DNA from: an uncultured Gemmatimonadaceae bacterium | GTDB taxonomy: Bacteria; Gemmatimonadota; Gemmatimonadetes; Gemmatimonadales; Gemmatimonadaceae | DNA length: 64,000 nt | NCBI GenBank assembly: GCA_963781585.1 | Contig: CAWAGQ010000013.1 | Coordinates: forward strand, 288,001 to 352,000 | Direction: 5' to 3' | In this document: positions 7,655 through 50,131 of the stretch, piece after piece | Layout: each line of letters starts with the position of its first letter | Numbering within the stretch: position 1 is the first letter of the stretch | The notes under the pieces: generated by a model | What the model saw: the letters and a program-made list of their open reading frames with translations, nothing else | What the model was told of the DNA's origin: nothing | The model's database searches: none | Position numbers and translations under genes: made by a program

Positions 7655-10819
<3,165 letters not shown>

Positions 10820-11005
10820 GGCGGGACCTCGGGGGCACGAGCCGAGAGAAGATGCGGTATCCCGAAAATGTACGACGTGAAGGGGTGCCGGGCGAGGCGG
10901 AGGGGGGCCGGTGCGCGCGCGTGCCACCCGGTGACGAGGTGCGTGAATGCTGGTGGTGGGAGTCGAGGCGGGTGCGTAGACCGCGGGCCGTCTGGTGACC
11001 TCTCA

Positions 11006-11410
11006 ATGCAGCCGAATCCGAAACTCCTGCGCTCGTGGCGTGCGAAATTGTGCGTTGGGGATTTCAGCCGGCGGACGGAGGAGTCGTACGTGAGCTGGGG
11101 TGCGTCGCTTCATCGAACGCAATCAGCTCCGCCACCCGCAAGACATGAGGGAACGCGAAGTCGTGCAGTTTCTGACCTTCCTTGCCGTCGAGCGCACACT
11201 CGCTGCCGCCACCCAGGCCCAGGCAGTTGCGGCGCTCCAGTTCCTGTAACCCTGCGCCATTCCTTTGCGACGCATTTGCTTGGAGGCAGGCCATGACATC
11301 CGAACGGTACCGGAGCGATTGGGGCGTCGTGACGTATCGACGACGATGATCTACACGCGCGTGCTGAATCGCGTTCGGTCGGGTGTTCGCAGCCCGGTGG
11401 ACCGCGTATT
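11006..11410 (+). pseudogene. intI: Integron integrase remnant: internal deletion and two frameshifts
   Basis: N-term FSRRTEESYVSW/VRRFIERNQLRHPQDMREREVVQFLTFLAVERTLAAATQAQAVAALQFL joined at ~11250 to C-term [48 protein letters not shown]; the C-terminal tail is characteristic of IntI. Confidence 0.85.
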
Positions 11411-11490
11411 CGGGCCCGCAGGGTTGTCGGATTCGGCTGCGCTCCGTATGGTGGGCGCTGGTTGGGGTGTTGGGAGGGGAATGGGAAGAG

Positions 11491-11514
11491 GGGTTCAATA
11501 CTTGTTAGACGCCT
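11491..11514 (+). other. Putative attI site / start of first cassette
   Basis: GTTRRRY core GTTAGAC at 11504-11510, preceded by AT-rich GGGTTCAATACTT, ~100 bp 3' of the intI remnant; GTTAGACGCCT is the exact reverse complement of AGGCGTCTAAC at 19508-19518. Confidence 0.65.
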
Positions 11515-11549
11515 ACAATCATCGCGGCGGAGCAAACCCTGGAGATCCG

Positions 11550-12053
11550 ATGGCGTATCGTAACAAGGTGTTTGTCTCATTCGACGGCGACTCGGATATC
11601 CACTACTACCGGCTCATGCGCGCGTGGAAGCAGAACGACCGCACGGACTTCGACTTCGTCGATGCTCATGATCTGACCCAAGCTCGCGATACGAGCACTG
11701 AAGACTCGATCAAGCGCAGCCTGTTGCAGCGGCTCGCGAACACCAAAGTCTTCGTATCTCTTATCGGGGAGAAGACGAAGTACCTCTATAAGTTTGTCCG
11801 ATGGGAGCTCGAGCAGGCAATTCGCCTCGATGTCCCGATCATCGGCGTAAACCTGAACGGCCGGCGCTCGCAGGACGCCGACCGATGCCCGCCACTTCTG
11901 CGCGACCAACTCGCCGTCTACGTCACGTTTAACCCTGCGATCATCCAGTACGCCCTCGAGCACTGGCCAACCGAGTGGCAAACCCTTCGACGCGAAGGCA
12001 AGACTGGCGCGCGGTACTATACGGACAGCGTGTATTCACGGCTCGGCCTGTAG
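11550..12053 (+). CDS. thsB: TIR-like (MTH538/DUF1863) protein, Thoeris ThsB-like
   Basis: ATG 11550 after [32 protein letters not shown] (catalytic Glu context), VPIIGVNL. Confidence 0.8.
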
Positions 12054-12065
12054 CCGCCACGGCGC

Positions 12066-12992
12066 ATGTTGAGCACCTCTATTGCCGCTGTCCGGCACAT
12101 CTCGGTCGTCAAGTTGGGCGAGTCGATCCTCGAGGCGCTGGGCGTTCTATGGCTCATTCTCGAGATCACGGCTTACTTTTCCACCCAGTCGTCCGCGGTC
12201 ATCAGGCCGTACTGGTGGCTGTTTCTGATCGGGGGCGTTGGAGCAGGCCTCGTCCGCGCTTGGCCTCGACTCGCGGCTTCAGAGATTGTCGAGGGATCGG
12301 ACTGCACCATCGAGATCCGAGTGTGCGATATCCTCTCTCTTCGACACGTCGCACTGGTTGTCGGAACGAACGACACTTTCGATACCGCGCTTTCTGATGG
12401 CACGATTAGCAGCGAGAGCGTTCAGGGTCAGGCGACACTCCGCTTGCTTGCATCTCCGGAACAGCTGAATCGAGAACTCGACCATTCACTCGCTGGAACG
12501 GCGGCCACCGAGTTGTCTTACGATGACAAACCCTTCGGCAACTTAAAGCGATACCCAATTGGGACCGTGGCGAGTGTGGATGCTGGTACGCGGCGCATAT
12601 ACTTCGCCGCCATCGCCTCGCTCAACGCGCACCGCGTGGCCCACACAACCCGCCGGGATATCGCCGATGCGCTACCCCGGATTTGGGAACACATCCGCGA
12701 GCGAGGAGGGCTACACCCCCTGGCGTGTCCCGTGCTCGGATCGGGCTACTCACGATTGGACGCTACACGCGAGGAGCTCATTCGGGAGATCATCCGGTCA
12801 TTCGTGCCGGCAGTGAGGGCTGGAATGTTCTGCCGCGGACTGACGATCGCGGTTAGTCCCCGAGACTTTCGTGATGGACGCGTGAGTCTCACCGCGCTCG
12901 GGAGCTTCCTCGCGCACGAGTGCAAGTACGGAAGCGCGGGGCTGAGCCGGGACGTGGGCGGGCCACTCGGAACACCTCAAGGTTCAGCCTGA
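12066..12992 (+). CDS. thsA: Two-TM + macro-domain protein, type II Thoeris ThsA-like effector
   Basis: Two N-terminal hydrophobic helices, then IEIRVCDIL, VVGTNDTFDT, SVQGQ, YPIGTVA, PVLGSGYSRL macro-fold motifs; directly downstream of the TIR gene. Confidence 0.72.
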   Translation: MLSTSIAAVRHISVVKLGESILEALGVLWLILEITAYFSTQSSAVIRPYWWLFLIGGVGAGLVRAWPRLAASEIVEGSDCTIEIRVCDILSLRHVALVVGTNDTFDTALSDGTISSESVQGQATLRLLASPEQLNRELDHSLAGTAATELSYDDKPFGNLKRYPIGTVASVDAGTRRIYFAAIASLNAHRVAHTTRRDIADALPRIWEHIRERGGLHPLACPVLGSGYSRLDATREELIREIIRSFVPAVRAGMFCRGLTIAVSPRDFRDGRVSLTALGSFLAHECKYGSAGLSRDVGGPLGTPQGSA

Positions 12993-15900
12993 TGCCTCGG
13001 ATCTTCGACAACATCCACGATGATCTGCTTCCTGCCCTGCGCGCCATGCTGGAGGTCGCGAATCGTTCCGACTTCAGCGTTGGCTATTTCAACCTCCGCG
13101 GATGGAAGACCCTCGATGATCTCGTCGAGCGGTGGCCGGGAGGTGGGGGCAACCAGTGCCGGCTTCTGGTCGGAATGCAGCGACTCCCGCAGGATGAGCT
13201 CCGCGCGGCCCTGAGTGTCGCTGCCCCGGGGCACGATGAACTCGACAACCAAACTGCGCAGCGACTCAAGAAGAAGCTTGCCGAGGAGTTTCGCAATCAA
13301 CTGACCTTCGGTGTCCCGTCCAATGCAGACGAAGCAGGGCTGCGGCGTCTTGCCGGGCAACTCAGGGCCGGCAAGGTTGTCGTCAAACTGTTCCTCCGGC
13401 ACGCGCTGCACGCCAAGCTGTACCTGCTCTTCCGCACGGACCCCGTCAATCCGATCGTCGGTTACCTGGGCAGCAGCAACTTGACGCTGTCCGGCCTCTC
13501 GCATCAAGGTGAGCTGAACATCGACGTCCTCGATCACGATGCCGCCACGAAACTGGCGAACTGGTTTGAGGACCGCTGGAACGACCGCTGGTGTGTCGAC
13601 ATCACCGAGGAGCTGATCCAGGTCATCGGCGAAAGCTGGGCGCGCGAGGAGGCACTGGCGCCGTACCACATCTACGTGAAGATGGCCTACCATCTTGCGC
13701 AGGAAGCCCGCGCCGGCCTCGCTGAGTTCCGCATCCCTCCAGAGTTCGGGAATCGGCTCTTCGACTATCAGGTTGCTGCCGTCAAGATCGCCGCACACCA
13801 TCTAAACAAGCGCGGCGGCGTGCTGATCGGCGATGTCGTGGGTCTCGGCAAGACGTTGATGGCATCTGCCTTGGCCAAGATCTTCCAGGACGATCACTTC
13901 ACCGAAACCCTGATTATCTGCCCCAAGAATCTCGTGAAGATGTGGGAGGACTACGTCTCCGAGTACCGATTGCTCGCAAAGGTCCTCTCAGTCACCCGCG
14001 CCGCTCGCGAGCTCCCGGAGCTTCGGCGCTATCGCGTGGTGCTCATCGACGAGAGCCAGAACCTCCGCAATCGCGAGGGCAAGCGCTACCGCGCCATTCA
14101 GGAGTACATACAGGAGAACGAAAGCAAATGCATCCTGTTGTCCGCGACGCCCTATAACAAGACCTACCTCGACCTCTCGAGCCAGTTGCGCCTGTTCGTT
14201 GCCGAAGACAAGGACATGGGGATTCGCCCGGAGCGTCTTCTCCGTGAGCTGGGTGAGACCGAGTTCATCCGACGTCACCAGTCACCGGTACGCTCGCTTG
14301 CCGCGTTCGAGAAGAGCGAATATGCCGATGATTGGCGCGAATTGATGCGTTTGTACATGGTGCGCCGGACGCGGAGCTTCATCCAGGACAACTACGCCGC
14401 AACCGATCCGGCAAATGGGCGCAAGTTCCTGACCTTCGAAGACGGCACGCGATCGTACTTTCCTGACCGAATACCCAAGACAGTCAAGTTCCGCATTGAC
14501 GAGAAGAGTCCTTCCGATCAGTACGCGCGGCTTTTCGCCCCTGACGTTGTCGTCGCGATCAACGGGCTTAGCCTGCCCCGGTATGGACTTGCGAACTACG
14601 TGGCCGCCACGCCACACAAGGCACCCACGACAGCGGAGGCAAAGCAGTTGCAGGATCTGTCGCGCGCAGGCAAGCGCCTCATGGGCTTCTGCCGCACCAA
14701 CCTCTTCAAGAGGCTCGAAAGCAGTGGCGATGCTTTCGGACAGTCCATCGAACGACACGTTCTGCGCAACTACATCGTCCTGCACGCCATCGAACACGCC
14801 TTGCCCCTGCCGCTGGGAACGCAGGATACAGGCCTCCTTGACGCTGGCAACTATGACGAAGATGTCGACGACGAGGCTGCGACAGCCGAACTGTTCGAGG
14901 ACGAGAACGGCGATGGTGTGACCGCCCCGCCGCGTGCCGCGCTGCGCAGCGTCGAAGATTTCAAGAAGCGAGCGGCGGAACTCTACGAATCCTACGCGAC
15001 TCAATTCAAGCGGCGCTTCAAGTGGCTCCGGCCGGACTTGTTCGTCAAGTCACTCGCAACCGATCTTGAGGCGGATGCCGTGAGCTTGCTCGAGGTCCGC
15101 ACACGCTGCGGCCAGTGGGACCCGTCAAAGGATGCCAAACTCGATGCGCTCTATAACCTTTTGGAGAAGCGCCACCCCCGCGAGAAGGTACTCATATTCA
15201 CCCAGTTCGCAGACACAGTCCGTTACCTCGAGGCGCAGCTTCGCGCACGCGGAGTCAAGCGGCTCGCTGGCGTCACCGGAGAGGACGAGGACCCCACGAG
15301 CTACGCCTGGCGCTTCAGCCCGGACAGCAACAAGAAACGCAAGCGCCTGCGGCCCGATGAAGAGCTACGTGTTCTGCTCGCGACCGATGTCCTCAGCGAA
15401 GGCCAGAACCTTCAGGACGGGGCCATCATCGTCAACTTCGACCTCCCTTGGGCCATCATCAGGCTCGTTCAGCGGGCAGGTCGCGTCGATCGCATTGGGC
15501 AGAAATCGGAGAAGATCCTTTGCTATTCTTTCCTGCCGGCTGATGGCGTCGAGAACCTGATCCGCCTGCGCGCGCGGGTGCGCCAGCGGCTGCACGAGAA
15601 CGCCGAGGTTGTTGGCACGGACGAAGCTTTCTTTGAGAACGAGAGAGAGCGCCAGAAGCTCCTCGACCTTTACCACGAGAAGTCAGGCATTCTCGATGGG
15701 GAAGCGGAGACCGAAGTGGACCTCGCTTCATACGCCTACCAGATCTGGAAGAACGCCATTGACCGTGATCCAGACCTGCGGAAGTCAATTCCGGCGCTCC
15801 CGCCGGTGGTCTTCTCGACTCGTCCACACGAAAGCACCGAGCGGAAGCCGCATGGCGCCCTCGTCTACCTTCGGACTGCCGAAGGCAATGACGCGCTCGC

Positions 15901-16387
15901 GTGGGTCGACAAGGCCGGCAACAACGTCACCGAGTCCCAGTTCGAGATCCTGAAGGCGGCGGAGTGCACACCCGATACCCGCGCGTTACCCCGCCAAGCA
16001 GATCATCATGACCTCGTACGGAAGGCGGTTGACTTTGTCGTGTCCGAGGAGAAATCGGTCGGCGGCCAGCTGGGCCGCCCATCCGGTGCCCGGTTCCGTA
16101 CTTACGAGCGCCTTAAACGCTACGCCGAGCAGGTCAAAGGCACGCTATTCCAGTCGCCCGAGCTCGCGAAGGCCATCGAAGAGATCTACCGCTTTCCACT
16201 TCGGCAATCGGCCACCGACACCCTGAATCGCCAGCTGCGAGCTGGGATCTCGGACGATAAGCTGGCCGAGCTGGTGATGGCGCTCCGCGACGACGATCGG
16301 CTGTGCTTGGTCCACGAGGAAGAGCACTCCGCCGAGCCCCAGATCATCTGCTCCCTCGGCCTGGCCCCGGCCGAGAGCGGGAGCTGA
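12992..16387 (+). CDS. PLD-nuclease / SNF2-like helicase fusion (restriction-type subunit)
   Basis: ATG overlaps the previous stop (TGATG); HAKLYL...GSSNLT...ELN PLD motif; GDVVGLGKT, DESQN, SAT, SEGQNLQ, QRAGRVDRIGQ helicase motifs. Confidence 0.88.
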   Translation: MPRIFDNIHDDLLPALRAMLEVANRSDFSVGYFNLRGWKTLDDLVERWPGGGGNQCRLLVGMQRLPQDELRAALSVAAPGHDELDNQTAQRLKKKLAEEFRNQLTFGVPSNADEAGLRRLAGQLRAGKVVVKLFLRHALHAKLYLLFRTDPVNPIVGYLGSSNLTLSGLSHQGELNIDVLDHDAATKLANWFEDRWNDRWCVDITEELIQVIGESWAREEALAPYHIYVKMAYHLAQEARAGLAEFRIPPEFGNRLFDYQVAAVKIAAHHLNKRGGVLIGDVVGLGKTLMASALAKIFQDDHFTETLIICPKNLVKMWEDYVSEYRLLAKVLSVTRAARELPELRRYRVVLIDESQNLRNREGKRYRAIQEYIQENESKCILLSATPYNKTYLDLSSQLRLFVAEDKDMGIRPERLLRELGETEFIRRHQSPVRSLAAFEKSEYADDWRELMRLYMVRRTRSFIQDNYAATDPANGRKFLTFEDGTRSYFPDRIPKTVKFRIDEKSPSDQYARLFAPDVVVAINGLSLPRYGLANYVAATPHKAPTTAEAKQLQDLSRAGKRLMGFCRTNLFKRLESSGDAFGQSIERHVLRNYIVLHAIEHALPLPLGTQDTGLLDAGNYDEDVDDEAATAELFEDENGDGVTAPPRAALRSVEDFKKRAAELYESYATQFKRRFKWLRPDLFVKSLATDLEADAVSLLEVRTRCGQWDPSKDAKLDALYNLLEKRHPREKVLIFTQFADTVRYLEAQLRARGVKRLAGVTGEDEDPTSYAWRFSPDSNKKRKRLRPDEELRVLLATDVLSEGQNLQDGAIIVNFDLPWAIIRLVQRAGRVDRIGQKSEKILCYSFLPADGVENLIRLRARVRQRLHENAEVVGTDEAFFENERERQKLLDLYHEKSGILDGEAETEVDLASYAYQIWKNAIDRDPDLRKSIPALPPVVFSTRPHESTERKPHGALVYLRTAEGNDALAWVDKAGNNVTESQFEILKAAECTPDTRALPRQADHHDLVRKAVDFVVSEEKSVGGQLGRPSGARFRTYERLKRYAEQVKGTLFQSPELAKAIEEIYRFPLRQSATDTLNRQLRAGISDDKLAELVMALRDDDRLCLVHEEEHSAEPQIICSLGLAPAESGS

Positions 16388-16396
16388 GGTGTGCCG

Positions 16397-19393
16397 ATGG
16401 CTCTGAACGCTGCGCGCGCTCGGGAACGTCTCGCCAAGGGTGACCTGCGCGCTCTGTTTATCGAAGAACTCGGATGGGATCGTCATACGGCAACCCTGAG
16501 GGTAACCGTGGACGGCTCAACGCTCGATCTACACGCGCTCGCTCAGAAGCGCGGCATGGTCGCCTACCATTGCCCCGCGCCTGCGGGCCAGCCCCTGCCT
16601 GATTACAGCCACCGCCGCAAGATCGAGCATCAAGTCGCCAAGTCAGCACACGAGCACCTCATCATTTTCACCGACCCGGGCAACCAGACTCAGGTCTGGC
16701 AGTGGGTGAAACGAGAACTCGGAAAGCCGACCGCGTGTCGGGAGCATGCCTACCACCGCTCCCAGCCCGGTGACGCACTGCTCCAGAAGTTGAACGCCAT
16801 TGCGTTCACGCTAGAAGAGGAGGATCGGCTTTCTCTTCCGGACGTCACTCGGCGTGCTCGTGCCGGGTTCGATGTCGAGAGGGTTACCAAGCGCTTCTAC
16901 GACCGCTTCCAGAAGGAGCACGGAGCCTTTCTCAAGTTCATCACCGGCATTACCCAGAGCACCGACCGCGAGTGGTACGCCTCGGTCATGTTGAACCGGT
17001 TGATGTTCGTCTACTTCGTGCAGCGCAAGGGTTTCCTCGACGGCGACCGCCACTACCTCCGCAACCGGCTCGCGCGCATGCGCGCCGAGCATGGCAAGGA
17101 CAAGTTCTACTCCTTCTACCGGTACTTCCTCCTCCGCCTCTTTCATGAGGGGCTCGGCGGCAAGGCGCGCACGCGCGAGCTCGAGGCGCTCGTCGGTCAC
17201 ATCCCGTACCTGAACGGTGGCCTCTTCGACGTCCACGAGCTGGAGAAATCGGATCGCTACGGCAAGACCATCCGGATCCCCGACTCGGCGTTCGAACGCA
17301 TCTTCGACTACTTCGATCAGTACCAGTGGCACCTGGACGAGCGGCCGCTCCGCGCCGACAACGAGATCAACCCAGACGTACTGGGCTACATCTTCGAGAA
17401 GTACATCAACCAGAAACAGATGGGGGCGTACTACACGAAGGAGGACATCACCGAGTACATCAGCAAGAACACTGTGCTGCCGTACCTCTTCGATTCCGCG
17501 CGCACCAAATGCAGAGTTGCGTTCGAGAATGCTAAAGGCCCCACGGTCTGGGACCTGCTGAAGTCCGACCCCGACCGGTACATCTACTCTGCCGTTCGCC
17601 ACGGCGCCGGGGAACCGCTGCCGGCGGACATCTCCGCTGGGCTGAATCCACCGACTTTGCACAAAGCGGTGGGCGACGGCCCCGTCATGACCCTTGAGCT
17701 CAGGAAGGGCTGGAACAGGCCGGCACCCGCGACGCACGCGCTCCCGACGGAGACATGGCGTGAGGTAATCGCGCGCCGGACGCGTTATGAGGAGATCAAG
17801 AAGGGGCTCGCTGCTGGCGAGGTGAGGGACATCAACGACCTCATTACCCTCAACCTCGACATTCGCCAGTTCGCCCAGGATGCCATCGAGAACTGCGAAG
17901 GCCCGGACCTCCTTCGTGCCTTCTGGCATGCCATCGAGAAGGTGACCATCCTCGACCCGACGTGCGGGTCGGGCGCGTTCCTCTTCGCGGCCCTGAATAT
18001 CCTCGAACCGCTGTACGAGGCCTGCCTGGACCGGATGGAGGCCTTCGTTGACGATCTCGCTCGGTCGGGAGAGAAGCATCGCCCGGAAAAGTATTCCGAC
18101 TTCCGGAAGGTGCTGGATCGCATCGCGGCCCATCCCAATCGCCGTTACTTCATCTTCAAGAGCATCATCCTCAACAACCTCTTCGGCGTGGACATCATGG
18201 AAGAGGCGGTGGAGATCTGTAAGCTCCGCCTCTTCCTTAAGCTTGCGGCGCAGGTGGAGCCGGACTCCGCGCGCGACAACCTCGGCATTGAGCCTTTGCC
18301 GGATATCGATTTCAACATTCGCGCCGGCAACACGCTCGTCGGCTACGCGACGCTTGATGCCGTGAAAGAGGCACTCGGCAGCAAGCTCGACTTCGACAAC
18401 GCGGCCGACAAGATCGCGGTTAAGGCCGCAGATCTCCAGCAGGTCTTCGACGCATTCCGGGCGCGGCAGGTGGAGGGCGACGGTTCTGTTCCGGCGGAGC
18501 ACAAGCAGGAGCTCCGCAAGCGTCTGAGCGCCCTGGATGAGGAACTCAACCGTCACCTTGCGAATGAGTACGGCGTCGAGTGGACGAAGAAAGACGCCTA
18601 CACCAAGTGGCTGAAGTCCCATCAGCCATTCCACTGGTTCGTCGAATTCTACGGGATCATGAGCGGTGGCGGGTTCGACGTGATAATTGGGAACCCGCCG
18701 TATCTGGAGTACTCCAAGGTTGCCGAGTATTCAGTCCGCGGGTACGCGACTGAGCGATGCTCGAATCTCTACGTGTATACGGTCGAGAGGTCGCTCGCTC
18801 TGAACGGCCCCCGTGGGAGCTTGGGGATGATCATCCCAATCTCAGCCGCATGTTCCGGCGCCATGCAGCCGCTCCGTGACCACCTCACGCAGCGGGCCGG
18901 ATCGCTCTGGCTCTCTCATTTTTCAAACCGCCCGGGTCAGCTGTTCAATGGAGCCCAGAACCGTCTGACGATACTTGTCGCCTCGAGACGGCGTGGAGAC
19001 CGAAAGGTCTTCTCCACTCGATACCATAGATGGGACGCCAGAAATGGCGAACGAGACAGCCTGTTTCCCGTCTTGCGTTACCTCGAGACAGGCGAGGAGG
19101 CGCCCATGTTTCATGGGCTTCTCCCCAAGATTGGTACTCCCGAAGCAGCCGCTGTGCTGAAGAAGATCAGATGTGCCAAGACGGTCGCGTTCTTCACCAC
19201 AAGGCGCGGCAAGTACAAGCTCTTCTGGGTGCGCGTGCCCGGCTATTTCTGTGTCTTTCTTCCCGGCCGCTTGCCGCGCGGCTTTCAAGGCAGGCCGGAT
19301 CCTGTTCTTGTCCCCGTTCACCAAGCATCCGAGGCGTGTCACGAAGGAGTCTGCCCTCCGGCGCAACGAGGTGGTCGCCGCGCTCGCAGATGA
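16397..19393 (+). CDS. Eco57I-like adenine DNA methyltransferase; C-terminus probably truncated at ~19245
   Basis: IPYLNGGLF, GAYYT, ILDPTCGSGAFL (motif I), GVDI, IIGNPPY (motif IV); last ~45 aa look like out-of-frame read-through. Confidence 0.85.
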   Translation: MALNAARARERLAKGDLRALFIEELGWDRHTATLRVTVDGSTLDLHALAQKRGMVAYHCPAPAGQPLPDYSHRRKIEHQVAKSAHEHLIIFTDPGNQTQVWQWVKRELGKPTACREHAYHRSQPGDALLQKLNAIAFTLEEEDRLSLPDVTRRARAGFDVERVTKRFYDRFQKEHGAFLKFITGITQSTDREWYASVMLNRLMFVYFVQRKGFLDGDRHYLRNRLARMRAEHGKDKFYSFYRYFLLRLFHEGLGGKARTRELEALVGHIPYLNGGLFDVHELEKSDRYGKTIRIPDSAFERIFDYFDQYQWHLDERPLRADNEINPDVLGYIFEKYINQKQMGAYYTKEDITEYISKNTVLPYLFDSARTKCRVAFENAKGPTVWDLLKSDPDRYIYSAVRHGAGEPLPADISAGLNPPTLHKAVGDGPVMTLELRKGWNRPAPATHALPTETWREVIARRTRYEEIKKGLAAGEVRDINDLITLNLDIRQFAQDAIENCEGPDLLRAFWHAIEKVTILDPTCGSGAFLFAALNILEPLYEACLDRMEAFVDDLARSGEKHRPEKYSDFRKVLDRIAAHPNRRYFIFKSIILNNLFGVDIMEEAVEICKLRLFLKLAAQVEPDSARDNLGIEPLPDIDFNIRAGNTLVGYATLDAVKEALGSKLDFDNAADKIAVKAADLQQVFDAFRARQVEGDGSVPAEHKQELRKRLSALDEELNRHLANEYGVEWTKKDAYTKWLKSHQPFHWFVEFYGIMSGGGFDVIIGNPPYLEYSKVAEYSVRGYATERCSNLYVYTVERSLALNGPRGSLGMIIPISAACSGAMQPLRDHLTQRAGSLWLSHFSNRPGQLFNGAQNRLTILVASRRRGDRKVFSTRYHRWDARNGERDSLFPVLRYLETGEEAPMFHGLLPKIGTPEAAAVLKKIRCAKTVAFFTTRRGKYKLFWVRVPGYFCVFLPGRLPRGFQGRPDPVLVPVHQASEACHEGVCPPAQRGGRRARR

Positions 19394-19478
19394 GGCGTAC
19401 GTCGCGCACGTCGCAAGCGGCGGGAAGACAGACCAGATCGTGAAGAAGCTGGCGGAGTGGAAGGTGCCGCTTCTGTGA
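19245..19478 (+). pseudogene. C-terminal fragment of a DprA/Smf-like (SLOG) protein
   Basis: GRILFLSPF...RRVTKESALRRNEVVAALADEAYVAH..SGGKT resembles the DprA RN..IA.LA...V...SG motif; no plausible own N-terminus. Confidence 0.55.
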
Positions 19479-19511
19479 AGACGTCGCGCATTGGAGCCGT
19501 CGAGGGCAGGC

Positions 19512-19569
19512 GTCTAACGAAGTAAAGATTCGTGCCGCGCGATAGCCGCGGCACAATCTGGGGTTGAAC
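19512..19569 (+). other. attC-like site (58 bp, atypical short right spacer)
   Basis: R'' GTCTAAC, stem AGATT-c-GTGCCGCG/CGCGGCAC-AATCT with one unpaired base, R' GTTGAAC. Confidence 0.65.
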
Positions 19570-19782
19570 TCAGTCCGCCCCGCGGCAGGGCCTTGGAGTT
19601 TCAGGCGGGTGCGTGACCCGAGGCGACGTCCAGGACGCCCAGCGAAGCGAGCGTCAGGCGGCCTGCCGAGCCCAGACCGGGGGCCGCGCACCGGACCAGC
19701 CGCGCGCGATTGAGGCCGGCGCAGCGTTGGCCGTGCGCTCCGGCGATCATGGGGCGCGGCTTCGCCGGACCACGCGCGCGGA

Positions 19783-20952
19783 TCATGCGGCGACTGTGGC
19801 AGTCGGTGGGGTGGAGCACGGCGAGGACCACGAGTCCGGCGGCGCGCGCGATCGGGTGAAGTGGTCGATGACCACGAGGCGACCGCGCCGACAGACCGGG
19901 CAGCAGGGGTCCGGCGCGGTTGGTGGCTGGTCGTGCGCGACCGGAGTCTGCGCCGGGATGTTGCTCGCGGACTTCGGGACGCCGTCGCGAGCGTGAAGCT
20001 CGAGGAGATCGCGGGCCCGTTCCAGCTGCGTGCGGCGGCCGGGGCTCAGGAGACCATAGGAGCGGACCTTGGTGAAGCCTCGGGGGAGGACGTGCTGGAG
20101 GAAACGGCCGATGAAGGTGTTCACCGGCAGCGTCAGGCGCCGGGTCTCCCCGGTGCGTGCGTGGGTATAGCGGAAGGTGACGCGATCATTGCTGAAGCGT
20201 TCGATGCGGTGGTTGGTGAGGGCGACGCGGTAGATGTAGCGGGAGAGATAGAGTGCGGCGTGCTGCCCGGTGCCGATGGCCTTGACGTGGACCGTCCAGC
20301 GGTGGGTCCACACGCCGGGATCGACCTCGCCGGCGAGGCCGGCTCGTGCGAACGCGTCGCGCATCTTCGCCCGGAAGATCGGGGAGAGCATGTAGCCCGG
20401 GACGAGGAAACGAGAATGAGCGGGCTTGATCCAGGCCGTGCCGTCCGCGCCGAGGCCGCCGGCGCTGACGAGGAGGTGGACGTGGGGATGGTGCTCCAGG
20501 GTGCGCGACCAGGTGTGGAGTACGGCGAGGATGGCGGGAGTGCCGCCCACCCAGTTCGGGTCCTTACAGAGCGTGAGGACAGTGGCAGCTGCTTCGCGTA
20601 GAAGGGCGGCGTATACCAGGCGCTGGTGCGATCGGGCGACGGACCGCAGCCCCTGTGGGAGGGTGAACGTGAGGAGGTAGTGGCCGGTGTGGAGAAGCCG
20701 CTGCCGGACTCGCTCCAACCATCTCTGGGCCCGATCGTCCTGGCACGTGGGACAGTGGCGGTTGCGGCAGGAGTGGTAGCGGTACGCGAGGGCAGCGCAC
20801 TCGTCGCAGCGGTAGAGCGAGCCACCGAGGGCCGGTGTGCGACACTGGACGATGTCGTTCATGGCCCTCCGGTGGGAGGGCAGGAGCGGTCCGGCGTGGG
20901 TCCGCAGATACTCGGGCCCCGCCCTGCGGAGGATGTCCGCGAGCTCCACCAC
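19783..20952 (-). CDS. IS91-family (HUH, rolling-circle) transposase
   Basis: CRTPALGG, SCRNRHCPTC Zn-binding domain, LHTW...HPHVH (HUH), YLSRY, FLQHVLPRGFTKVRSYG. Confidence 0.92.
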   Translation of the reverse strand: MVELADILRRAGPEYLRTHAGPLLPSHRRAMNDIVQCRTPALGGSLYRCDECAALAYRYHSCRNRHCPTCQDDRAQRWLERVRQRLLHTGHYLLTFTLPQGLRSVARSHQRLVYAALLREAAATVLTLCKDPNWVGGTPAILAVLHTWSRTLEHHPHVHLLVSAGGLGADGTAWIKPAHSRFLVPGYMLSPIFRAKMRDAFARAGLAGEVDPGVWTHRWTVHVKAIGTGQHAALYLSRYIYRVALTNHRIERFSNDRVTFRYTHARTGETRRLTLPVNTFIGRFLQHVLPRGFTKVRSYGLLSPGRRTQLERARDLLELHARDGVPKSASNIPAQTPVAHDQPPTAPDPCCPVCRRGRLVVIDHFTRSRAPPDSWSSPCSTPPTATVAA

Positions 20953-20999
20953 GGCCCGTCTCGGGGGCAGTGGCTGTCTGAACCGACGGGCCTAACGAC

Positions 21000-21872
21000 T
21001 CAAGAGCGACGCGCCATGAGATCGTTGATCGGACTCAGCGCGGCGTCGTGGAGCTCCCGGGTGAGGTGGGTGTAGATGGCGGTTGTTCTGGGACTGGTGT
21101 GGCCCAGATACTCCTGGATCAATCGCAGATTGACACCGGCCTCCAGCAGGTGCGTGGCGTAGCTGTGCCGGAGCGTGTGGACGTGCGCGCGCTTGTGGAT
21201 ACCGCTGGCCCTGACAGCACGGACGAAGGCGCTCTGAAGGCTGGCGCGGGAGATGGGGCCCACGGCCGGGTCGCTCAGGACGCCGGCATGGGATCGGGTG
21301 ATCGTGGGGAAGAGCCAGAGGGGATTACGGTGCGTCCGCCAGTGCTCTCGCAACAGCGCGAGGGTGGCGTCCGGGAGCGGGACGTAGCGATCCTTGCGGC
21401 GCTTGCCGTGAATGTGGAGCAGCTTCCGGGCACCATCGACATCGGGGACCTGGAGGCGGGCGCCCTCCAAGAGGCGGAGGCCGCAGGCGTAGATGGTCGT
21501 CAGGCAGACGCGGTAGACGGGAAGTCGAAGATGATCCAGGATTTGCCAGACCTCGCCGCGGCTCAGGACGACCGGGAGCTTCTTCTCCCCCTTGGGCCGG
21601 GCCACCTTGAGGACCATCCACTCGCGCCCAAGCGTGTGCTGGTAGAAGAACTTGAGGCCGCAGAGGGCGATGGTGTGGGTGCCCCGGGCGACCTTCTGAA
21701 CGGTGGTGAGGTGAAGGAGGTAGTCGCGGAGCTGCTCTTCCGTGAGGGTGTCGGGTGAGGCATGATAGAAGCGGGCCAGCTGAGCGACGGAGCGGACGTA
21801 GGCTTCGACGGTGCGATCGGAGTAGCCGCGGAGCTGGAGATCCTGGATCATGCGTTGGCGGAGCGGTGTCAT
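21000..21872 (-). CDS. Tyrosine recombinase (IS91-associated type, N-terminal SAM-like domain)
   Basis: MTPLRQRMIQDLQLRGYS, YACGLRLLE, HTLRHSYATHLLEAG, LGHTSPRTTAIYTH; RBS GAGGAC; lacks the IntI-specific insertion. Confidence 0.92.
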   Translation of the reverse strand: MTPLRQRMIQDLQLRGYSDRTVEAYVRSVAQLARFYHASPDTLTEEQLRDYLLHLTTVQKVARGTHTIALCGLKFFYQHTLGREWMVLKVARPKGEKKLPVVLSRGEVWQILDHLRLPVYRVCLTTIYACGLRLLEGARLQVPDVDGARKLLHIHGKRRKDRYVPLPDATLALLREHWRTHRNPLWLFPTITRSHAGVLSDPAVGPISRASLQSAFVRAVRASGIHKRAHVHTLRHSYATHLLEAGVNLRLIQEYLGHTSPRTTAIYTHLTRELHDAALSPINDLMARRS

Positions 21873-21991
21873 GGTGTCCTCGCTGAAGGGGTTCAGCGTG
21901 AACATTGGACATCACTCCGCCAACTTCATCAGCCACGGTGGAGTAAGGGCACGCACCGAAATCGCAGTGCTAGACGCCGAAGGCGGATTGA

Positions 21992-22085
21992 GTTCAACCA
22001 CGCGTTGCAGCCGACGCGGGCGCCATGGTGGCGGCTTCGCCGCTTTGATTGGACTGCCCGCGCAGCTGAACGCTAGGCGTTAGGC
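21992..22085 (+). other. attC site
   Basis: R'' GTTCAAC, CGTTGCAGCCGACGCGGGC.../...GCCCGCGCAGCTGAACG stem, R' GTTAGGC. Confidence 0.85.
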
Positions 22086-22098
22086 GGAGCTTCAAGTC

Positions 22099-22593
22099 AT
22101 GAGCACTTCAGAGCTGGACACTCAGTCTGCAGCGGAGCGACGATCGGCGGAAGCCCGGTTGCGGGCGCTTATCGCCAAGTGCGTTCCCGCGCACCAACGG
22201 CTCACCGGCGCATTGCGACGATGGCTGCGAAAGCGCCTGCCCACCGCCCATGAGGTGGTCTATGAGTATTCTGACTGCCTCGTCATCAGCTATTCACCGA
22301 ACGAGCGCGGGTATGACGGGGTCCTTGCCATCCGCGCGAGCGCCGACGGAGTCAAGCTGTACCTCAATCGTGGCACGGGATTGCCGGATCCTGAGAAACT
22401 GTTGCGGGGGTCCGGCAAACAGACGCGCTGGATTCCCGTGGAGGGCGCATCCACACTCGCTCGCTCGGCGGTCGTGGACGTGATCGACAGAGCCATCGCT
22501 CGAAGTCGCGTCCCGTTTGGGCGCACCGGCCTTGGGTTGGTGGTCATTCGTTCGGAAGTGGCCAAGGCGCGTGGGCGGCGTCGCCCCGCCTAA
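22099..22593 (+). CDS. Cassette protein, DUF1801/YdhG-like
   Basis: Starts 14 bp after R'; LPDPEKLLRGSGKQTRWI motif; stop lies in a degenerate R'' (GCCTAAA, 22588) whose context GCCCCGCCTAAA nearly complements the cassette start GTTAGGCGGAGC. Confidence 0.6.
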   Translation: MSTSELDTQSAAERRSAEARLRALIAKCVPAHQRLTGALRRWLRKRLPTAHEVVYEYSDCLVISYSPNERGYDGVLAIRASADGVKLYLNRGTGLPDPEKLLRGSGKQTRWIPVEGASTLARSAVVDVIDRAIARSRVPFGRTGLGLVVIRSEVAKARGRRRPA

Positions 22594-22653
22594 AAAACCC
22601 CTGGAGCTGGCGGGAAGGGAATCTCGTAGAACATTCCTCTCGTAGGACCCTGC

Positions 22654-23618
22654 GTGAGGCACGCACACATCGCGTTCATGGTTGCTGCAGCAGCCGTGCT
22701 GCAAGGGCAGCAACCGCAGCTGCCGCCGGCGCCTGGCAAACTGGTGGATATTGGAGGTAGGCGACTCCACGTCATGTGCAGCGGCTCCGGCTCACCCACG
22801 GTCGTCCTCGAGGCGGGCGCCTCGTCTTTCGCGATCGACTGGACGCTGGTGCAACGGTCGGTGGCTCGCACCGCGTGTCTGTTCCTACGACCGCGGTGGT
22901 ATGGGATGGAGTGATCCGTCTTCGGGTACCTTCATCGACGCCGCAAGAAGACCTCCACAAGCTGCTGGCGGCAGTTTCGGAGCACCCTCCATTCATCCTC
23001 GTCGGGGCCTCACGAGGTGGACTCTTTATCCGTGCGTTTCAGGCCGACTATCCGTCGGAAGTCGCCGGGTTGGTATTTGTCGACCCGTCGACTGAAGACC
23101 GCCTATTCACCGTCTTTGAAGGTCACGACGTGTTGATCGCATCGCTGACCGCCCAGCAGCTTCGCTCGACACTTCCGACAGCACCGGTCGTGGTCCCGCG
23201 CCGGCAACCGCAGACCGGCGCGCCCTTCGACCGCCTGCCGCCGCAGCTCCATCGAACTCGCGTGCTGCTTGACGAACGGCTCATTGCCTCATACCCAGAT
23301 ACCGTCACACCAGAGGTTGTCGCCGCCTTCTCCGAGAGCGAACGAGCGCTCTTGGCGCGCCTCCGAGCGCTTCGTGCTCCGACGCGACACCCGCTCGGCA
23401 GCCTTCCCACGGTCGTTCTGACGCGGGGCAATCCGAGAAACAACGAACGCGAGGCGGCGCATCGTTCCCTGGCCTGTCTCTCGACGGATTCACGCCACAC
23501 CATCGTCGCCGGCGCCGGCCACGAGATCCATCTGTTCAAACCGAACGCCGTCGTTCAGGCAATCGAGGACGTGATCGAAGCCGTTCGTTACAATGCGCCC
23601 CTGCGAACGCTGCGTTAA
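22654..23618 (+). pseudogene. Alpha/beta hydrolase, two frameshifts (~22870, ~22930)
   Basis: LVDIGGRRLH..GSGSPTVVLEAG / RVCSYDRGGMGWSD / ILVGASRGG ... GAGHEIH are distributed over three frames. Confidence 0.75.
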
Positions 23619-23660
23619 CGCGGGCGTGAGACATCACCACAAATCGCGGATTGCAGCCAG

Positions 23661-24368
23661 GTGTTGACTGACCTCGAGCTGATGCAGTTGCACGTGGACG
23701 CCGAATTCACGCAGGACGCGGCTGGCCATCTGGTGTCAACGAATGAGCCAACAGCGGCCCCCGCGCCACGGTTCTTCCTGGGCCAGACCGCGCTCGGCGT
23801 TGTTCGCCGCTACCGGCGCGACGTGTCACTTGCACGCCGAAGGATGCTGGAGGCCGCCCTCGCGGACGCCGGAGGTGATCGCTCCAATGTGGCCCTCGAC
23901 GGGCCGCTCGATCCGACGCCGTTCGAGGAGATTCTGTCAAAGGAAGCGCCCATCCAGCATACCTCAGTTGGAATCGCATTCCGCTTCCCGGACGTGTTGC
24001 CAGCAGATCCTGCCACCCGGATCCTATGTAGCACCGCAGAGGCCTCGCTGCTACATCCGTTGCTTGCGGCATGGGCGCCGGACATCCAGTTGTCCGCACC
24101 ACTCGTGGCGTACGTCTCTTATGGCGTGGCTGTCGCCGTGTGCGGCAGCGTGCGGATCACGCCCCGCGCGCATGAAGCAGGAGTAGAGACGGCTGCACCC
24201 TATCGGGGCCATGGCTACGCGAGTGCCGCCGTGGCGGCGTGGGCGACGACCGTGCGCGCACTCGGAGTAGAGCCGTTGTACAGTACAACGTGGCGGAACG
24301 CGGCCTCGCAGGGCGTCGCGCGGAGCTTGGGGCTTGTTCCATTTGGGCGCGATCTGCATATCACGTGA
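23661..24368 (+). CDS. GNAT family acetyltransferase
   Basis: EAGVETAAPYRGHGYA acetyl-CoA motif; YST..N.ASQ.VA..LG. Confidence 0.8.
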   Translation: MLTDLELMQLHVDAEFTQDAAGHLVSTNEPTAAPAPRFFLGQTALGVVRRYRRDVSLARRRMLEAALADAGGDRSNVALDGPLDPTPFEEILSKEAPIQHTSVGIAFRFPDVLPADPATRILCSTAEASLLHPLLAAWAPDIQLSAPLVAYVSYGVAVAVCGSVRITPRAHEAGVETAAPYRGHGYASAAVAAWATTVRALGVEPLYSTTWRNAASQGVARSLGLVPFGRDLHIT

Positions 24369-24381
24369 CGGCCCTCGTGAC

Positions 24382-24496
24382 GTCTGACAACGCGTTGCAG
24401 CCGGCAGGAACGCAAACGGTAGGTGACACAATCCCCTCCGCGAAACACAGCGTTGATGCCATCCGACCCCTGACGGGCGAATAGTCGCGTTTAGAC
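24382..24496 (+). other. Degenerate attC
   Basis: GTCTGACAACGCGTTGCAGCCG resembles the left arm of attC 21992; GTTTAGAC at ~24489 is a damaged R'. Confidence 0.4.
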
Positions 24497-24625
24497 GAAC
24501 AATTGCCGCTGTCGTGAATATCTGATCAATTCGACAACGGATCGCGAGTTGTGCAGGATGCGGACGTGTCTACGGGCAAGCGCGAGGGCGATGAAGCCGC
24601 CCAGGCTGCCGGAAGAGGTGCCGGC

Positions 24626-25189
24626 ATGAAGATGGCGTATCGAGAACGGTGGGAGGCGGAGATCGCGGCGATGCGGCGGGTGCTCGCCGGCTTTGCGATG
24701 CGGGAGGAGTGTAAGTGGGGTAAGCCGACCTACACGGTGGATGGGAAGAACATCGTCATCATGCAGGGCTTCAAAGAATACTTCGCGCTGGGCTTCTTTC
24801 AGGGCGCCCTGCTGAAGGACCCCAGGAAGGTGCTGGTGCAGCTCCGTCAGGTACACGCCGGGCGGGTGATGAAGTTCACCAGCGTGAAGGACATCACGGC
24901 GAAAGCAGCCACCATCAAGGCCTACGTGCGCGAAGCCATCGCAATGGAGAAGGCTGGGCGGCGGATGGAGCGCAGGAAAACCTCGGATTATCCGGTTCCC
25001 AAGGAGCTGGCGGAGAGTTTCCGAAGGGACCCGCGGTTCAAGCGCGCCTTCGAGGCGCTGACGCCGGGGCGGCAGCGGAGTTACCTCTACCACTTTGCCG
25101 CGGCCAAGCAGTCGGCGACGCGGGTGGCACGGATCGAAAAGGCGAGGCCGGCGATTTTCGAAGGCAGAGGGTTCCTGGAGAGGCGCTAG
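24626..25189 (+). CDS. YdeI/OmpD-associated (DUF1801) family protein
   Basis: EECKWGKPTY, FFQGALLKDP, FEALTPGRQRSY..AKQSATRVARIEK; start could lie upstream (24551). Confidence 0.85.
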   Translation: MKMAYRERWEAEIAAMRRVLAGFAMREECKWGKPTYTVDGKNIVIMQGFKEYFALGFFQGALLKDPRKVLVQLRQVHAGRVMKFTSVKDITAKAATIKAYVREAIAMEKAGRRMERRKTSDYPVPKELAESFRRDPRFKRAFEALTPGRQRSYLYHFAAAKQSATRVARIEKARPAIFEGRGFLERR

Positions 25190-25273
25190 TCATTCACAGC
25201 ACGACGGCCTGACCGGCCGGCTCCTCGAGGAGAAAGCGACCATGAGTCGTCGCAGTGACCGGTCGTTCGCGCC

Positions 25274-25357
25274 GGATAACCAGGCATGGCAGCGGATGAT
25301 TGGACTTCCTCGCTTCGCTCGCGCGGCCACTCGCCGCTGAATGCCACAACGTTAGGC
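25274..25357 (+). other. attC site
   Basis: GGATAAC...GGCATGGCAGCGG/CCGCTGAATGCC...GTTAGGC. Confidence 0.7.
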
Positions 25358-26648: not shown

Positions 26649-26739
26649 GCTTACCGTGCTTGCTGCTGACGATCGGGTCCAGGAACCCCGCTGCGCTCGC
26701 GATGGCGTGATCGCCTCGCAGCAGAAGCTGTCGTTAGGC
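26649..26739 (+). other. attC site (R'' degenerate), same family as attC 47129
   Basis: GCTTACC GTGCTTGCTGCTGACGA...TCGCAGCAGAAGC...GTTAGGC. Confidence 0.75.
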
Positions 26740-27047: not shown

Positions 27048-28527
27048 ATGCCTCCTGGACTCCGACAACTATTCAAGGGAACCCTGCTGCTCGCCTGCGC
27101 TACTGCTCAGACAGCGGCTCAGACGCCGGCGCTCTCGACGGCGCCAGTCGGGCAGCGGGATCTGTCCGAGTATGAGGGGCTCTACAACTACCGCGACGGT
27201 GGCAGGTTGTCCATCGTCGCAGGCGGCGACCGACTGGTGGCAGTCATCGGCGGAGCGAAGTATCGGCTTCGTGCCGCGGGCGTGGACACGTTCACGAACC
27301 CCGGAGGTGACCCGATTCCCTTTTTGCGTGACGCCAACGGTCGGATCGTGGCCTTCAAGGAGCACGATGATACGTTTCGGAGGCGCTCATCGAGCGTGCC
27401 GGTGTCCGTGCGGCTGCTGTTCGAGCCGCGTCCGAAGGACGCGGCAGGACGGCCGGTCGTCTACCATTACGCACCGCCCCGGCAGCTTGCGGACGGTATT
27501 CGCGCCGGCGTGGCTGGATCGGACACTCTCTGGCCGGCGGTTGCGGGGCGGCTCGTAGACGGCGTCATGGATCGGCACGTACCCCGATGTGCATTCGATC
27601 CTCGTCTATCACAAGGGTGCGTTTCGACTCGAGGAGTACTTCTACGGCTACAATCGCGATCGGCCGCACCAGATGCGCTCCCTCACCAAGAGCGTGATCT
27701 CGCTGCTTGCCGGAGTGGCCGTGGACCGGGGACTGCTCCGCGCCGATGAACCCGTGCTCGGGCAGCTCGGCTATCCGGCCTACCGGAATCCCGATGCTCG
27801 CAAGGGGCGAGTGACGCTGACGGACCTCCTGAGTAACCAGTCGGGCTTCGCCTGTGACGACCACGACGACGCTTCGCCGGGCAATGAGGTGAAGCTGTAC
27901 GACACGCCGGATTGGGTGAAGGCGTTCGTCGATCTGCCCATGGTGGCCGATCCGGGCACCGTCGGACGCTACTGCTCCGGCGGCATTCTCACGGCAGGCC
28001 GAATCGTCGAACGCGCGGCGGGCAAGTCCCTGCCGGCTTTCGCGCAGGAGGCCTTGTTCGGGCCGCTCGGTATTCAACGATCCGAGTGGCACTGGGACTT
28101 CAGGCTCGATCGCAGCCAGCGCAATGAGTTCGGGCAGATCTACCTCACGCCCCGTGACATGCTGAAGCTCGGGATCCTCATCCAGCGCCGCGGGGAGTGG
28201 GGAAACCGGCGGGTTGTGTCCACCACATGGATCGACGCCGCCGTTGCCCGGCAGTCGCATGTCGACGACAGCGACTACGGCCTGGGGATCTGGCATCGCT
28301 GGTACCGCGTGCAGGCGCGAAGCGGGGACCGCCGCGTCGACACCATCATGCTCTCGGGGAACGGCGGCCAGAAGGTGTATCTCGTTCCGTCCCTCGATCT
28401 GATCGTCGTATTCACGGGAGGTGCCTACAACACGGAGTCGCCTGCGAACGAGATGATGGCAGGGGTGCTCCTGCCGGCGCTGATTGAGGCCGAGGCGACC
28501 ATGTTGCGCCCCTCGGGTGGCGGCTGA
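27048..28527 (+). pseudogene. Serine hydrolase (beta-lactamase class C-like family), frameshift ~27570
   Basis: Signal peptide in one frame; SLTK (SxxK), YCS and LSGNGGQ in the next frame. Confidence 0.75.
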
Positions 28528-28734
28528 GCGACAGGTCGTTAGGCTGCGGTAACAATCCTACGCACATGGCAATTGCAGGCGTCCGCCGCCTATGCGGCGA
28601 ATTCGGGCCAGTTTCTGAAGAACACATTTCCCCCGAAGGGAGGCTTCTGTTCGTTGCAGTCGCGATTGACTCATTCGACTGGCGTCAGCAGTCGCGGGGG
28701 ATACTGTGCCCTTGACCGTTAGGCTTTGGGAGGA

Positions 28735-28821
28735 AACGTTACAGCCGACAAGCCGCACACGAGCGTAGTTGGACTTCCAGGTTCAGCCCGCGGCTTGCGG
28801 GTGAACGTCAAGCCGTTAGGC
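28735..28821 (+). other. attC lacking a clear R''
   Basis: ACGTTACAGCCGACAAGCCGC.../GCGGCTTGCGGGTGAACGT...GTTAGGC (28815). Confidence 0.6.
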
Positions 28822-47128: not shown

Positions 47129-47219
47129 GCCTAACGGTGCTTGCTGCTGACGAGCGGCTTGCGGAGACTCGCTGCGCTCGCGATGATGTGACCGCTCGCA
47201 GCAGAAGCTGGCGTTAGGC
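47129..47219 (+). other. attC site
   Basis: R'' GCCTAAC, GCTTGCTGCTGACGAGCGG/CCGCTCGCAGCAGAAGC stem with extrahelical bases, R' GTTAGGC. Confidence 0.88.
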
Positions 47220-50110: not shown

Positions 50111-50131
50111 AGTCTGAATCTCGTGCTCGCT

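Follow-up and report, generated by a model that had tools for sequence, protein, structure and literature searches.

How large a cargo can an integron integrase handle as a single cassette? Integron cassettes are a recognised reservoir of compact anti-phage systems, and the prevailing view in the portions of the literature available to us is that size restricts cassettes to one or two small genes. The question is raised here by a stretch of 64,000 nucleotides (nt; "the window") from an uncultured Gemmatimonadaceae bacterium (GenBank assembly GCA_963781585.1, contig CAWAGQ010000013.1, positions 288,001 to 352,000 of the forward strand), in which five tightly packed reading frames related to anti-phage genes lie just downstream of the remnant of an integron integrase gene (intI). 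We found that the block holding these frames, at 11505-19563, is formally one cassette adjoining the integron attachment site (attI) and closed by a 58-base-pair (bp) attC recombination site of its own (attC1). Its cargo comprises two predicted systems, an intact type II Thoeris pair and a three-gene module that seems to have been broken by a deletion. The block is probably one oversized cassette with a two-system cargo, occupying the first place after attI in an old chromosomal integron that has fallen into decay, and into which it was captured by the integrase IntI.

Ends of the cassette and its attC site

The left end of the block is marked by GTTAGACGCCT at 11504-11514, which is the exact reverse complement of AGGCGTCTAAC at 19508-19518. 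Both 11-mers occur once in the window, and the complementary run between them is exactly 11 nt long, with no outward extension. The left 11-mer begins at a GTTRRRY core, and the right one terminates as the RYYYAAC box of a hairpin. The G at 11504 represents the attI side of the crossover and TTAGACGCCT the cassette's own R′ half with a 4-nt stem extension, such that the first 10 nt past the crossover G complement the cassette's own R″ box together with four further bases. As a control, we scored the GTT sites of the + strand (n = 639) for complementarity to the R″ box at 19512 and its flank; the run reached 11 at 11504, and the next best value was 6, at one site. When the 11-mer was sought on both strands with at most one mismatch, three matches were found against a mean of 0.59 in shuffled sequences (100 shuffles, two of which gave three matches). 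Because inverted-repeat pairs of at least 11 nt are common in this region (132 within 10900-22300), the repeat alone is unremarkable, and it is its position that counts.

The hairpin at the right end has the boxes expected of an attC, with R″ (GTCTAAC, 19512-19518) fitting RYYYAAC and R′ (GTTGAAC, 19563-19569) fitting GTTRRRY. The folding energy of its bottom strand is -14.6 kcal/mol (z = -3.37), a value reached by one of 200 shuffles. The first-pass annotation, made from the sequence alone, had read the repeat and the 58-bp hairpin as the two ends of a cassette, and had proposed folding the bottom strand of the reconstituted circle junction as a check. We reconstructed this junction by script, joining the end of the block to its start at the G|TT crossover, and each strand formed one long hairpin of about -23.5 kcal/mol (bottom strand -23.5). 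An 11-bp R stem, lengthened by two flanking pairs, is separated by an unpaired spacer from an L stem, and a single G is extrahelical, on the arm of the bottom strand bearing GTTRRRY. This is the canonical attC hairpin, and its layout is the same as that given for attC bottom strands in the part of PMC5027507 available to us, namely R stem, unpaired central spacer, L stem, and extrahelical base(s) on the L″/GTTRRRY arm. Both the exact, single-copy complement and the attC-like fold were thereby borne out.

The rule that the start of a cassette complements its own R″ also holds for the next cassette, with an exact 10-nt run at 19563, and for the cassette at 47214, with a 9-nt run. When attC1 and the spacer upstream of the cassette were used as queries, a plasmid collection returned one 31-nt match (E 0.8), and the 79 loci described below, which are related to the block through its methyltransferase gene, returned only matches of 14-18 nt (E 0.035-0.54). 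An Rfam gathering scan of the whole window gave no matches.

Search for internal attC sites

A strict R-box scan of the window returned six sites, five of which fold cleanly into a single or near-single hairpin; the same filter let through one of 83 candidates when run on control loci totalling 1.3 Mb. Within the block it returned one candidate only, at 11927-12074, which was rejected as an attC: it is 148 nt long, folds into three hairpins, and lies mostly within thsB, reaching the start of thsA. A relaxed fold scan found 107 AAC...GTT pairs within the block, three of which form single hairpins with a paired fraction of 60% or more. The energies of these three, -0.05 to -0.09 kcal/mol per nt, compare with -0.16 to -0.31 kcal/mol per nt for the eight known sites in the same scan. 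The pairs of lowest energy, at 18329-18421 and 17714-17786, were also rejected, as they are branched, lie in methyltransferase coding sequence, and have no RYYY/RRRY flanks. This custom fold scan, which is other than the standard attC model, served as the generic test for internal sites. We also built a covariance model (R1) from seven attC sites of the resident array, and with filters off it had no match within 11515-19500 at E values up to 10; since R1 gives attC1 itself a score of just 10.3 bits, and that on the wrong strand, the lack of a match within the block speaks for the resident family only.

The spacing of the genes bears on the same point. The cassette start lies 45 nt from the ATG of ThsB, 12 nt separate ThsB from ThsA, ThsA and the helicase overlap by 1 nt (TGATG), 3 nt separate the helicase from the methyltransferase, and the last stop codon is 33 nt from R″. 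As the gaps between frames amount to 12, -1, and 3 nt, no attC of 50 nt or more fits between them. The earlier statement that tightly packed genes follow one another with no attC among them agrees with both scans and, for the resident family, with the outcome of a covariance scan of the kind that had been suggested along with it. The count of five genes stands for reading frames; only three of these are intact, the methyltransferase being truncated and the DprA-like frame a C-terminal remnant. The coordinates are collected in Table 1.

Table 1. Coordinates of the cassette, its cargo, and other features of the window (R1 is the covariance model of the resident attC family; aa, amino acids)
Feature	Position	Strand	Details
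intI remnant	11006..11405	+	TIGR02249 N- and C-terminal pieces, frameshifted
Left cassette junction	11504..11514	+	Reverse complement of 19508-19518, unique in window
Cassette 1	11505..19563	+	8,059 bp; GC 0.610
ThsB, predicted Thoeris TIR sensor, intact	11550..12053	+	167 aa; PF08937, E 1.6e-17
ThsA, Macro type, intact	12066..12992	+	308 aa; PF20016, E 7.5e-43, residues 82-263
PLD(HKD)-SNF2 helicase, intact, first gene of the module	12992..16387	+	1,131 aa; PLDc_2, SNF2-rel_dom, Helicase_C
N6-adenine methyltransferase, Eco57I/MmeI-like, cut short near residue 950 (full length about 1,110)	16391..19250	+	PADLOC PDLC03628
DprA-like C-terminal remnant, about 80 of about 185 aa, other frame	19230..19478	+	tblastn of L042 and L001 proteins
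attC1 of cassette 1	19512..19569	+	58 bp; R″ GTCTAAC, L″/L′ stem with one extrahelical base, R′ GTTGAAC
Formal cassette 2	19564..22079	- (genes)	2,516 bp; IS91-family transposase and IntI/XerC-like recombinase
IS91-family transposase	19783-20952	-	NF033538, E 1.5e-105
IntI/XerC-like recombinase without IntI-specific middle part	21000-21905	-	TIGR02249, 201.5 bits, two stretches
Resident attC closing cassette 2	21992..22085	+	R1 79.8 bits, E 2.7e-16
Resident attCs, first cluster, rest	25274-25357, 26649-26739, 28731-28821	+	R1 40-79 bits
Resident attCs, second cluster	47129-47219, 47868-47962, 50132-50229, 52403-52496	+	R1 40-79 bits

Two predicted anti-phage systems in the cargo

The first two genes, thsB and thsA, form an intact type II Thoeris pair. 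ThsB matches the PADLOC ThsB profile PDLC00429 over its whole length (1-167 of 167; E 1.7e-76), and ThsA matches PADLOC ThsA (E 5.6e-46). As in type II Thoeris, full-length ThsB_TIR and ThsA_Macro family matches are found in adjacent genes, and ThsA has N-terminal hydrophobic segments (two stretches, at residues ~25-65, recognised by eye from the translation); we saw no structural difference in this pair. ThsA reaches its native C-terminus, with the ...GTPQG tail that is common to homologues of 298-326 aa. At 90% identity the protein of the window clusters alone, its nearest relative being 72% identical. According to the parts of the Thoeris literature available to us, the signal in type II systems is a histidine-ADPR (ADP-ribose) conjugate and the outcome is abortive infection or growth arrest. 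ThsB would here be the TIR sensor that produces the signal and ThsA, with its Macro domain and transmembrane segments, the effector, which may act on the membrane, as those segments suggest. A promoter scan of 10800-13100 found no sites against 0.6 expected, a result that is uninformative for this organism.

The remaining three frames represent one conserved module of helicase, methyltransferase, and DprA-like gene, and not three systems. We examined related loci fetched with the methyltransferase, which comprised 79 loci from many phyla at 47-78% identity, taken from the best 80 of 629 confirmed relatives with one genome per species. The helicase lies directly upstream of the methyltransferase in 51 of the 61 loci that have at least 3.5 kb of upstream sequence, and of the 65 with room for a DprA-like gene, 38 have one downstream and in the same orientation, directly adjacent in 7 of these 38. 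The intact helicase matches the PADLOC "HKD+Snf2" profile (PDLC01075; E 5.3e-46) and has full-length matches at 54-84% identity in related loci. One locus, L042, has the helicase, the methyltransferase, and the DprA-like gene at 91%, 74%, and 81% identity, the last value having been obtained with a 75-aa query from the DprA-like fragment.

Comparison with these relatives points to an internal deletion in the window copy. The methyltransferase matches the PDLC03628 profile (REase_MTase_IIG; E 7e-304) over positions 1-937 of 1100, and its alignment to the full-length proteins of L042 and L001 (1,113 and 1,110 aa) stops near residue 950, after which the frame stays open, out of register, to 19393. 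The catalytic motifs DPTCGSG and NPPY are retained, as read in the translation, and much of the variable C-terminal region is gone; by analogy with MmeI-type enzymes, the lost region would be the target-recognition part. The DprA-like proteins of L042 and L001 have 183 and 186 aa, match PF02481, and are related to PADLOC PsyrA, and in tblastn searches of the window only their residues 102-183 align, at 73% and 60% identity, respectively. The junction of the deletion lies at about 19230-19255, where the methyltransferase and DprA-like frames overlap. Relative to L042, about 0.8 kb comprising the C-terminus of the former and the N-terminus of the latter has been removed, and the missing stretch may be larger if the ancestor had nested genes like those of L003 and L006. 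Neither the methyltransferase of about 1,110 aa nor the DprA-like protein of about 185 aa that would make the module complete is present, and the module is predicted to be disabled. In place of the complete, layered defence island of four units that had been proposed, we thus recognise two systems, the last three frames belonging to one module that a deletion of about 0.8 kb has broken.

In relatives, the module ends with the DprA-like gene, and between this gene and the methyltransferase other genes of defence or toxin-antitoxin type are nested. At 13447-18108 of L006 these are a HipA-like kinase with DUF3037 and DarT with a Macro protein, and at 13412-14599 of L003 there is one gene of 207 aa with no assigned function. 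In this respect the module acts like the scaffold of a small defence island. The pairing of a large Eco57I/MmeI-family methyltransferase with a PLD-SNF2 helicase is shared with Type IIG-like and DISARM-BREX-like modules, and the frames of the window give partial matches to DrmD, BrxH, DrmMI, and PglX. However, the five frames contain neither the DrmA/DrmB core of DISARM nor the PglZ/BrxC core of BREX: the sole DrmA match is weak and partial, to the helicase C-terminal domain (E 2.3e-15), and neither DrmB nor PglZ is among the best 25 matches listed per protein. The window module also differs from both in its third conserved gene, which encodes a DprA-fold protein related to PsyrA, and in that the copy here is truncated. 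No named system combining these three genes emerged from the literature examined, including the part of PMC12839542 available to us.

The window resembles the related loci at the DNA level only within 12976-19478, from the start of the helicase to the stop of the DprA-like frame, and so the whole block exists in none of the 79 loci; nor do the homologous blocks extend past the cassette ends. A relaxed attC scan of the 320 nt past the DprA-like gene gave candidates in 3 of 39 loci, none of them among the strict R-box passes. A search of the plasmid collection with the block yielded 33 records, each of them distantly related and matching the module alone; the top record matched 33% of the query at 65.8% identity, and none reached 80% of the block. 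Among the sequences compared, the combination of ThsBA with the module, and its packaging, appear to be unique.

A decaying integron

The intI remnant lies about 100 bp upstream of the left cassette junction, and its pieces are spread over three frames. Positions 26-74 of TIGR02249 are matched with an E value of 1.9e-11 and positions 273-315 with 2.9e-14 (XerC/XerD about 1e-4), while the match to positions 261-273 is weak (E 8e-4, no stretch passing alone). About 186 of the 315 profile positions are gone, the catalytic core among them. The resident intI is a pseudogene remnant and is dead, and the window contains no intact integrase with the catalytic core and the IntI-specific segment that characterise a complete integron. 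The first-pass annotation was right to put the block in the first, attI-proximal position, directly downstream of the remnant; its further suggestion that the island is an IntI substrate does not hold in cis, the integron's own intI being a pseudogene. The remnant is bracketed by a 24-nt inverted repeat (11008-11031 and 11417-11440; 21 of 24 positions, or 88%, complementary), one arm of which coincides with the first codons of intI while the other lies just past the last codons. Over 400 bp, this repeat is too good to be fortuitous.

The attC sites resident in the array form a family of about 90 bp. Seven such sites were used to build R1, and in these the L stem is altered on both sides in 13 of 19 pairs. 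R1 recovered its seven training sites and one new site, at 26649-26739, which brings the resident family to eight sites in the window, all scoring far better on the + strand. Together with attC1, four of them form an array in one orientation at 19.5-28.8 kb; the other four lie at 47-52.5 kb, in a second cluster (47129-52496) that sits 18 kb past the first array. The neighbouring cassettes measure 743-3,272 bp, compared with 8,059 bp for cassette 1.

Several features of the first array point to its decay. Cassettes of this array fuse via attC decay. The decayed 5′ half of a resident-type attC is found at 24382-24424, between a GNAT and a DUF1801 gene, and the cassette at 22080-25351 contains three genes with Pfam matches and one open reading frame without. 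Orphan boxes at 28538 and 28718 read CGTTAGGC. In the cassette closed by the attC at 28731, the product of one gene (27589-28527) has the beta-lactamase/serine-hydrolase fold (PF00144, E 2.6e-28). The cargo of the second cluster includes a PIN-like protein (47523-47870), an AHSA1/HTH pair, an M28 peptidase (50218-51645), and a MazF toxin (52051-52386). Two adjacent cassettes of this cluster, 47957-50223 and 50224-52490, have the same length of 2,267 bp with no detectable sequence similarity, which is probably a coincidence.

The neighbouring IS91-family element

Downstream of attC1, a transposase gene of the IS91 family of insertion sequences (IS) and a recombinase gene fill exactly one formal cassette between two complete attC sites. 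The recombinase falls below the TIGR02249 cut-off of 265. An 18-nt inverted repeat bounds this cassette 2 (19562-19579 and 21982-21999; 17 of 18 positions complementary), and its arms serve at the same time as R′ in attC1 and as R″ in the attC that follows. As described in the part of PMC13181058 available to us, IS91-family elements have no terminal inverted repeats, their ends bear subterminal palindromes, and the ori end abuts a GTTC or CTTG target. GTTC occurs on the - strand at 19569-19566, inside the R′ box of attC1, and if it is the target, the end of the IS falls at 19570, outside the hairpin. A second copy of this IS from which the ends could be mapped was found neither in the window nor, as a close copy, in the 79 loci. 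Two readings of the element are possible, an IS with attC cores as its targets or one that is carried by a cassette.

Elsewhere in the window, an exact direct repeat of 1,459 bp (41544-43002 and 45460-46918) holds most of a second IS91-type transposase gene, which is present on the - strand at 41788-43068 and 45704-47065. The second copy of the repeat stops 64 bp from the attC at 47129. This repeat may be a real duplication or an assembly artefact.

Origin of the 8-kb unit

The composition of the block sets it apart from its surroundings. Its guanine-cytosine (GC) content is 0.610, compared with 0.636-0.698 in the neighbouring cassettes, 0.632-0.698 in every other cassette, and 0.684 in the rest of the window outside the cassette arrays (sampled), and the ThsBA pair and the module are alike in this respect (0.58-0.61), both lying under every other cassette. 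Because attC1 is of another type (58 bp versus about 90 bp), the GC content is lower, and the block holds the first position, we infer a late acquisition from a foreign pool; these same features would suggest a foreign origin of the block as a whole. One unit, not two fused cassettes, is indicated because ThsA is full-length and the DprA-like remnant belongs to the helicase/methyltransferase module. Under the history that we consider probable, the unit would have come from a foreign cassette pool and would have entered by IntI-catalysed attI × attC recombination at the G|TT crossover, ahead of the earlier first cassette. The integrase gene would have decayed afterwards, the module would have undergone its deletion, and excision would today be possible only with an integrase supplied in trans. 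Capture of 8 kb in one IntI event is plausible, though unproven, and any activity of either defence system is predicted from the proteins encoded.

A number of observations weigh against this history. The activity of the dead resident integrase cannot be assumed, attI is assigned by its position only, and intI lies on the same strand as the cassettes, unlike the classical divergent layout. This same-strand arrangement matches the "inverted integrase" type. The rule that a cassette start complements its own R″ fails for four other cassettes, namely those closed by the attCs at 25274, 28731, 50132 (6 nt), and 52403; R1 is specific to the resident family, and its negative result informs little on other attC types; and the array loses attC sites, as seen from the half-site and the orphan R′-like boxes. 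In the related loci, ThsA and ThsB are found in 0 of 79 (E up to 1e-3) and no convincing attC is present in any (the strict scan of these 1.3 Mb gave one weak pass among its 83 candidates), meaning that the module occurs in all of them with neither. The ThsBA pair and the module may thus have been combined in place. In addition, a V. cholerae cassette whose attCs lie 4 kb apart gave 0 reads in a capture screen, and recovery falls with cassette size, as reported in the part of 10.64898/2026.03.17.712381 available to us; because of this drop, an 8-kb unit would be a poor substrate. It is possible but rather doubtful that an island of at least 8 kb with two unrelated anti-phage systems moved between genomes as a single cassette and was captured at attI.

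The combination in place can be given a concrete form, in which an ordinary two-gene Thoeris cassette of about 1.6 kb, already bounded by the present start and the 58-bp attC, gained the module between thsA and attC by non-integron recombination, or in which Thoeris was inserted ahead of a module cassette. On this view, no single IntI event would ever have taken up the 8 kb seen today, the same junctions would be expected, and GC content and GC at third codon positions (GC3), which set the block apart from the host, do not separate such assembly from one-step capture. Precedents exist in the available parts of two studies, one reporting two-gene cassettes with ThsB homologues in mobile integrons (10.1101/2024.07.02.601719) and the other defence cassettes with at most two components (10.1101/2024.07.02.601686). 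The absence of ThsAB and attC around the module in 79 of 79 loci is also in keeping with enlargement, as are the limits of the DNA similarity, which runs from 12976-12991 to 19478 and so coincides with the coding extent of the module itself, and the tolerance of the module to nested insertions in relatives such as L006. Yet both joints are seamless: ThsA has its native C-terminus, with a stop that overlaps the helicase ATG by 1 nt, and the module's last stop lies 33 nt from R″ with no flanking DNA, which is unusual for an illegitimate insertion. The similar GC content of the two parts, below that of all other cassettes, also counts against enlargement in place, which we regard as unlikely. A related idea, that neighbouring Thoeris and module cassettes merged after loss of the attC between them, draws on the attC decay and multi-gene "cassettes" seen in this very array (22080-25351, with its half attC). 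Fusion predicts that the start before thsB complements the lost attC, whereas it complements, over 11 nt, the attC behind the module; moreover, ThsA is complete, and neither intergenic space nor a half-site remains between thsA and the helicase, which makes fusion highly improbable.

The block might, finally, be no cassette at all, the 11-nt repeat having arisen by chance and the 58-bp hairpin being part of the end of the neighbouring IS91-family element. The abundance of inverted repeats in the region lends this some weight, as do the subterminal palindromes abutting GTTC in the IS91 family (PMC13181058, in the part available) and the GTTC on the - strand within attC1. However, the repeat runs from a GTTRRRY core about 100 bp past the intI remnant to the R″ of the hairpin, with a complementarity that no other of the 639 sites approaches (11 against 6); the IS end implied by that GTTC lies outside the hairpin; and the hairpin has the layout of an attC, with its extrahelical base on the correct arm. 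There is little chance that this explanation is correct, and capture of a single oversized cassette by IntI remains our preferred reading of the locus.

Comparison with known defence cassettes and implications

In the part available to us, a survey of complete RefSeq genomes reported 783 complete defence systems in cassettes, and gave two components as the maximum for any integron-borne system, with no long loci of the BREX or CRISPR-Cas kind (10.1101/2024.07.02.601686). Cassette 1 resembles these sedentary-integron defence cassettes, and the "BRiCs" of mobile integrons, as far as the available text describes them, in that anti-phage genes lie between a G|TT start and an attC of their own. It differs from the cassettes of that survey, with two components or fewer, in its five frames, its 8,059 bp, and its two systems, and from both groups in that the integrase has been lost and one system is broken. 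The long defence cassette 68 of the V. cholerae superintegron, described in the available part of 10.64898/2026.03.17.712381, consists of Sucellos and an IS, with attCs 4 kb apart, and likewise has an IS in the same array; it is the cassette that gave 0 reads in the capture screen. It owes its length to the IS insertion, whereas cassette 1 is twice as long, with cargo consisting entirely of defence genes and no IS inside. As an 8-kb cassette with five frames and two systems, it is a size outlier among the published defence cassettes in the sources available to us.

What we describe is a fossil, with a dead integrase and one system that appears broken, and it indicates that such units can exist in arrays, not that they are mobile today. 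A block with clean junctions that holds both a complete Thoeris pair and a three-gene module would nonetheless be a counter-example to the size limit, and would provide a tangible substrate with which to probe the upper size of cassette that an integrase handles. The detection tool in usual use clusters attC sites that lie within about 4 kb of each other, a setting that would hide 8-kb units. If the island did move between genomes as one cassette, surveys that cluster attCs in this way would systematically miss such cargo, and integron integrases could traffic multi-gene, multi-system islands of no less than double the presumed upper size of mobile cassettes.

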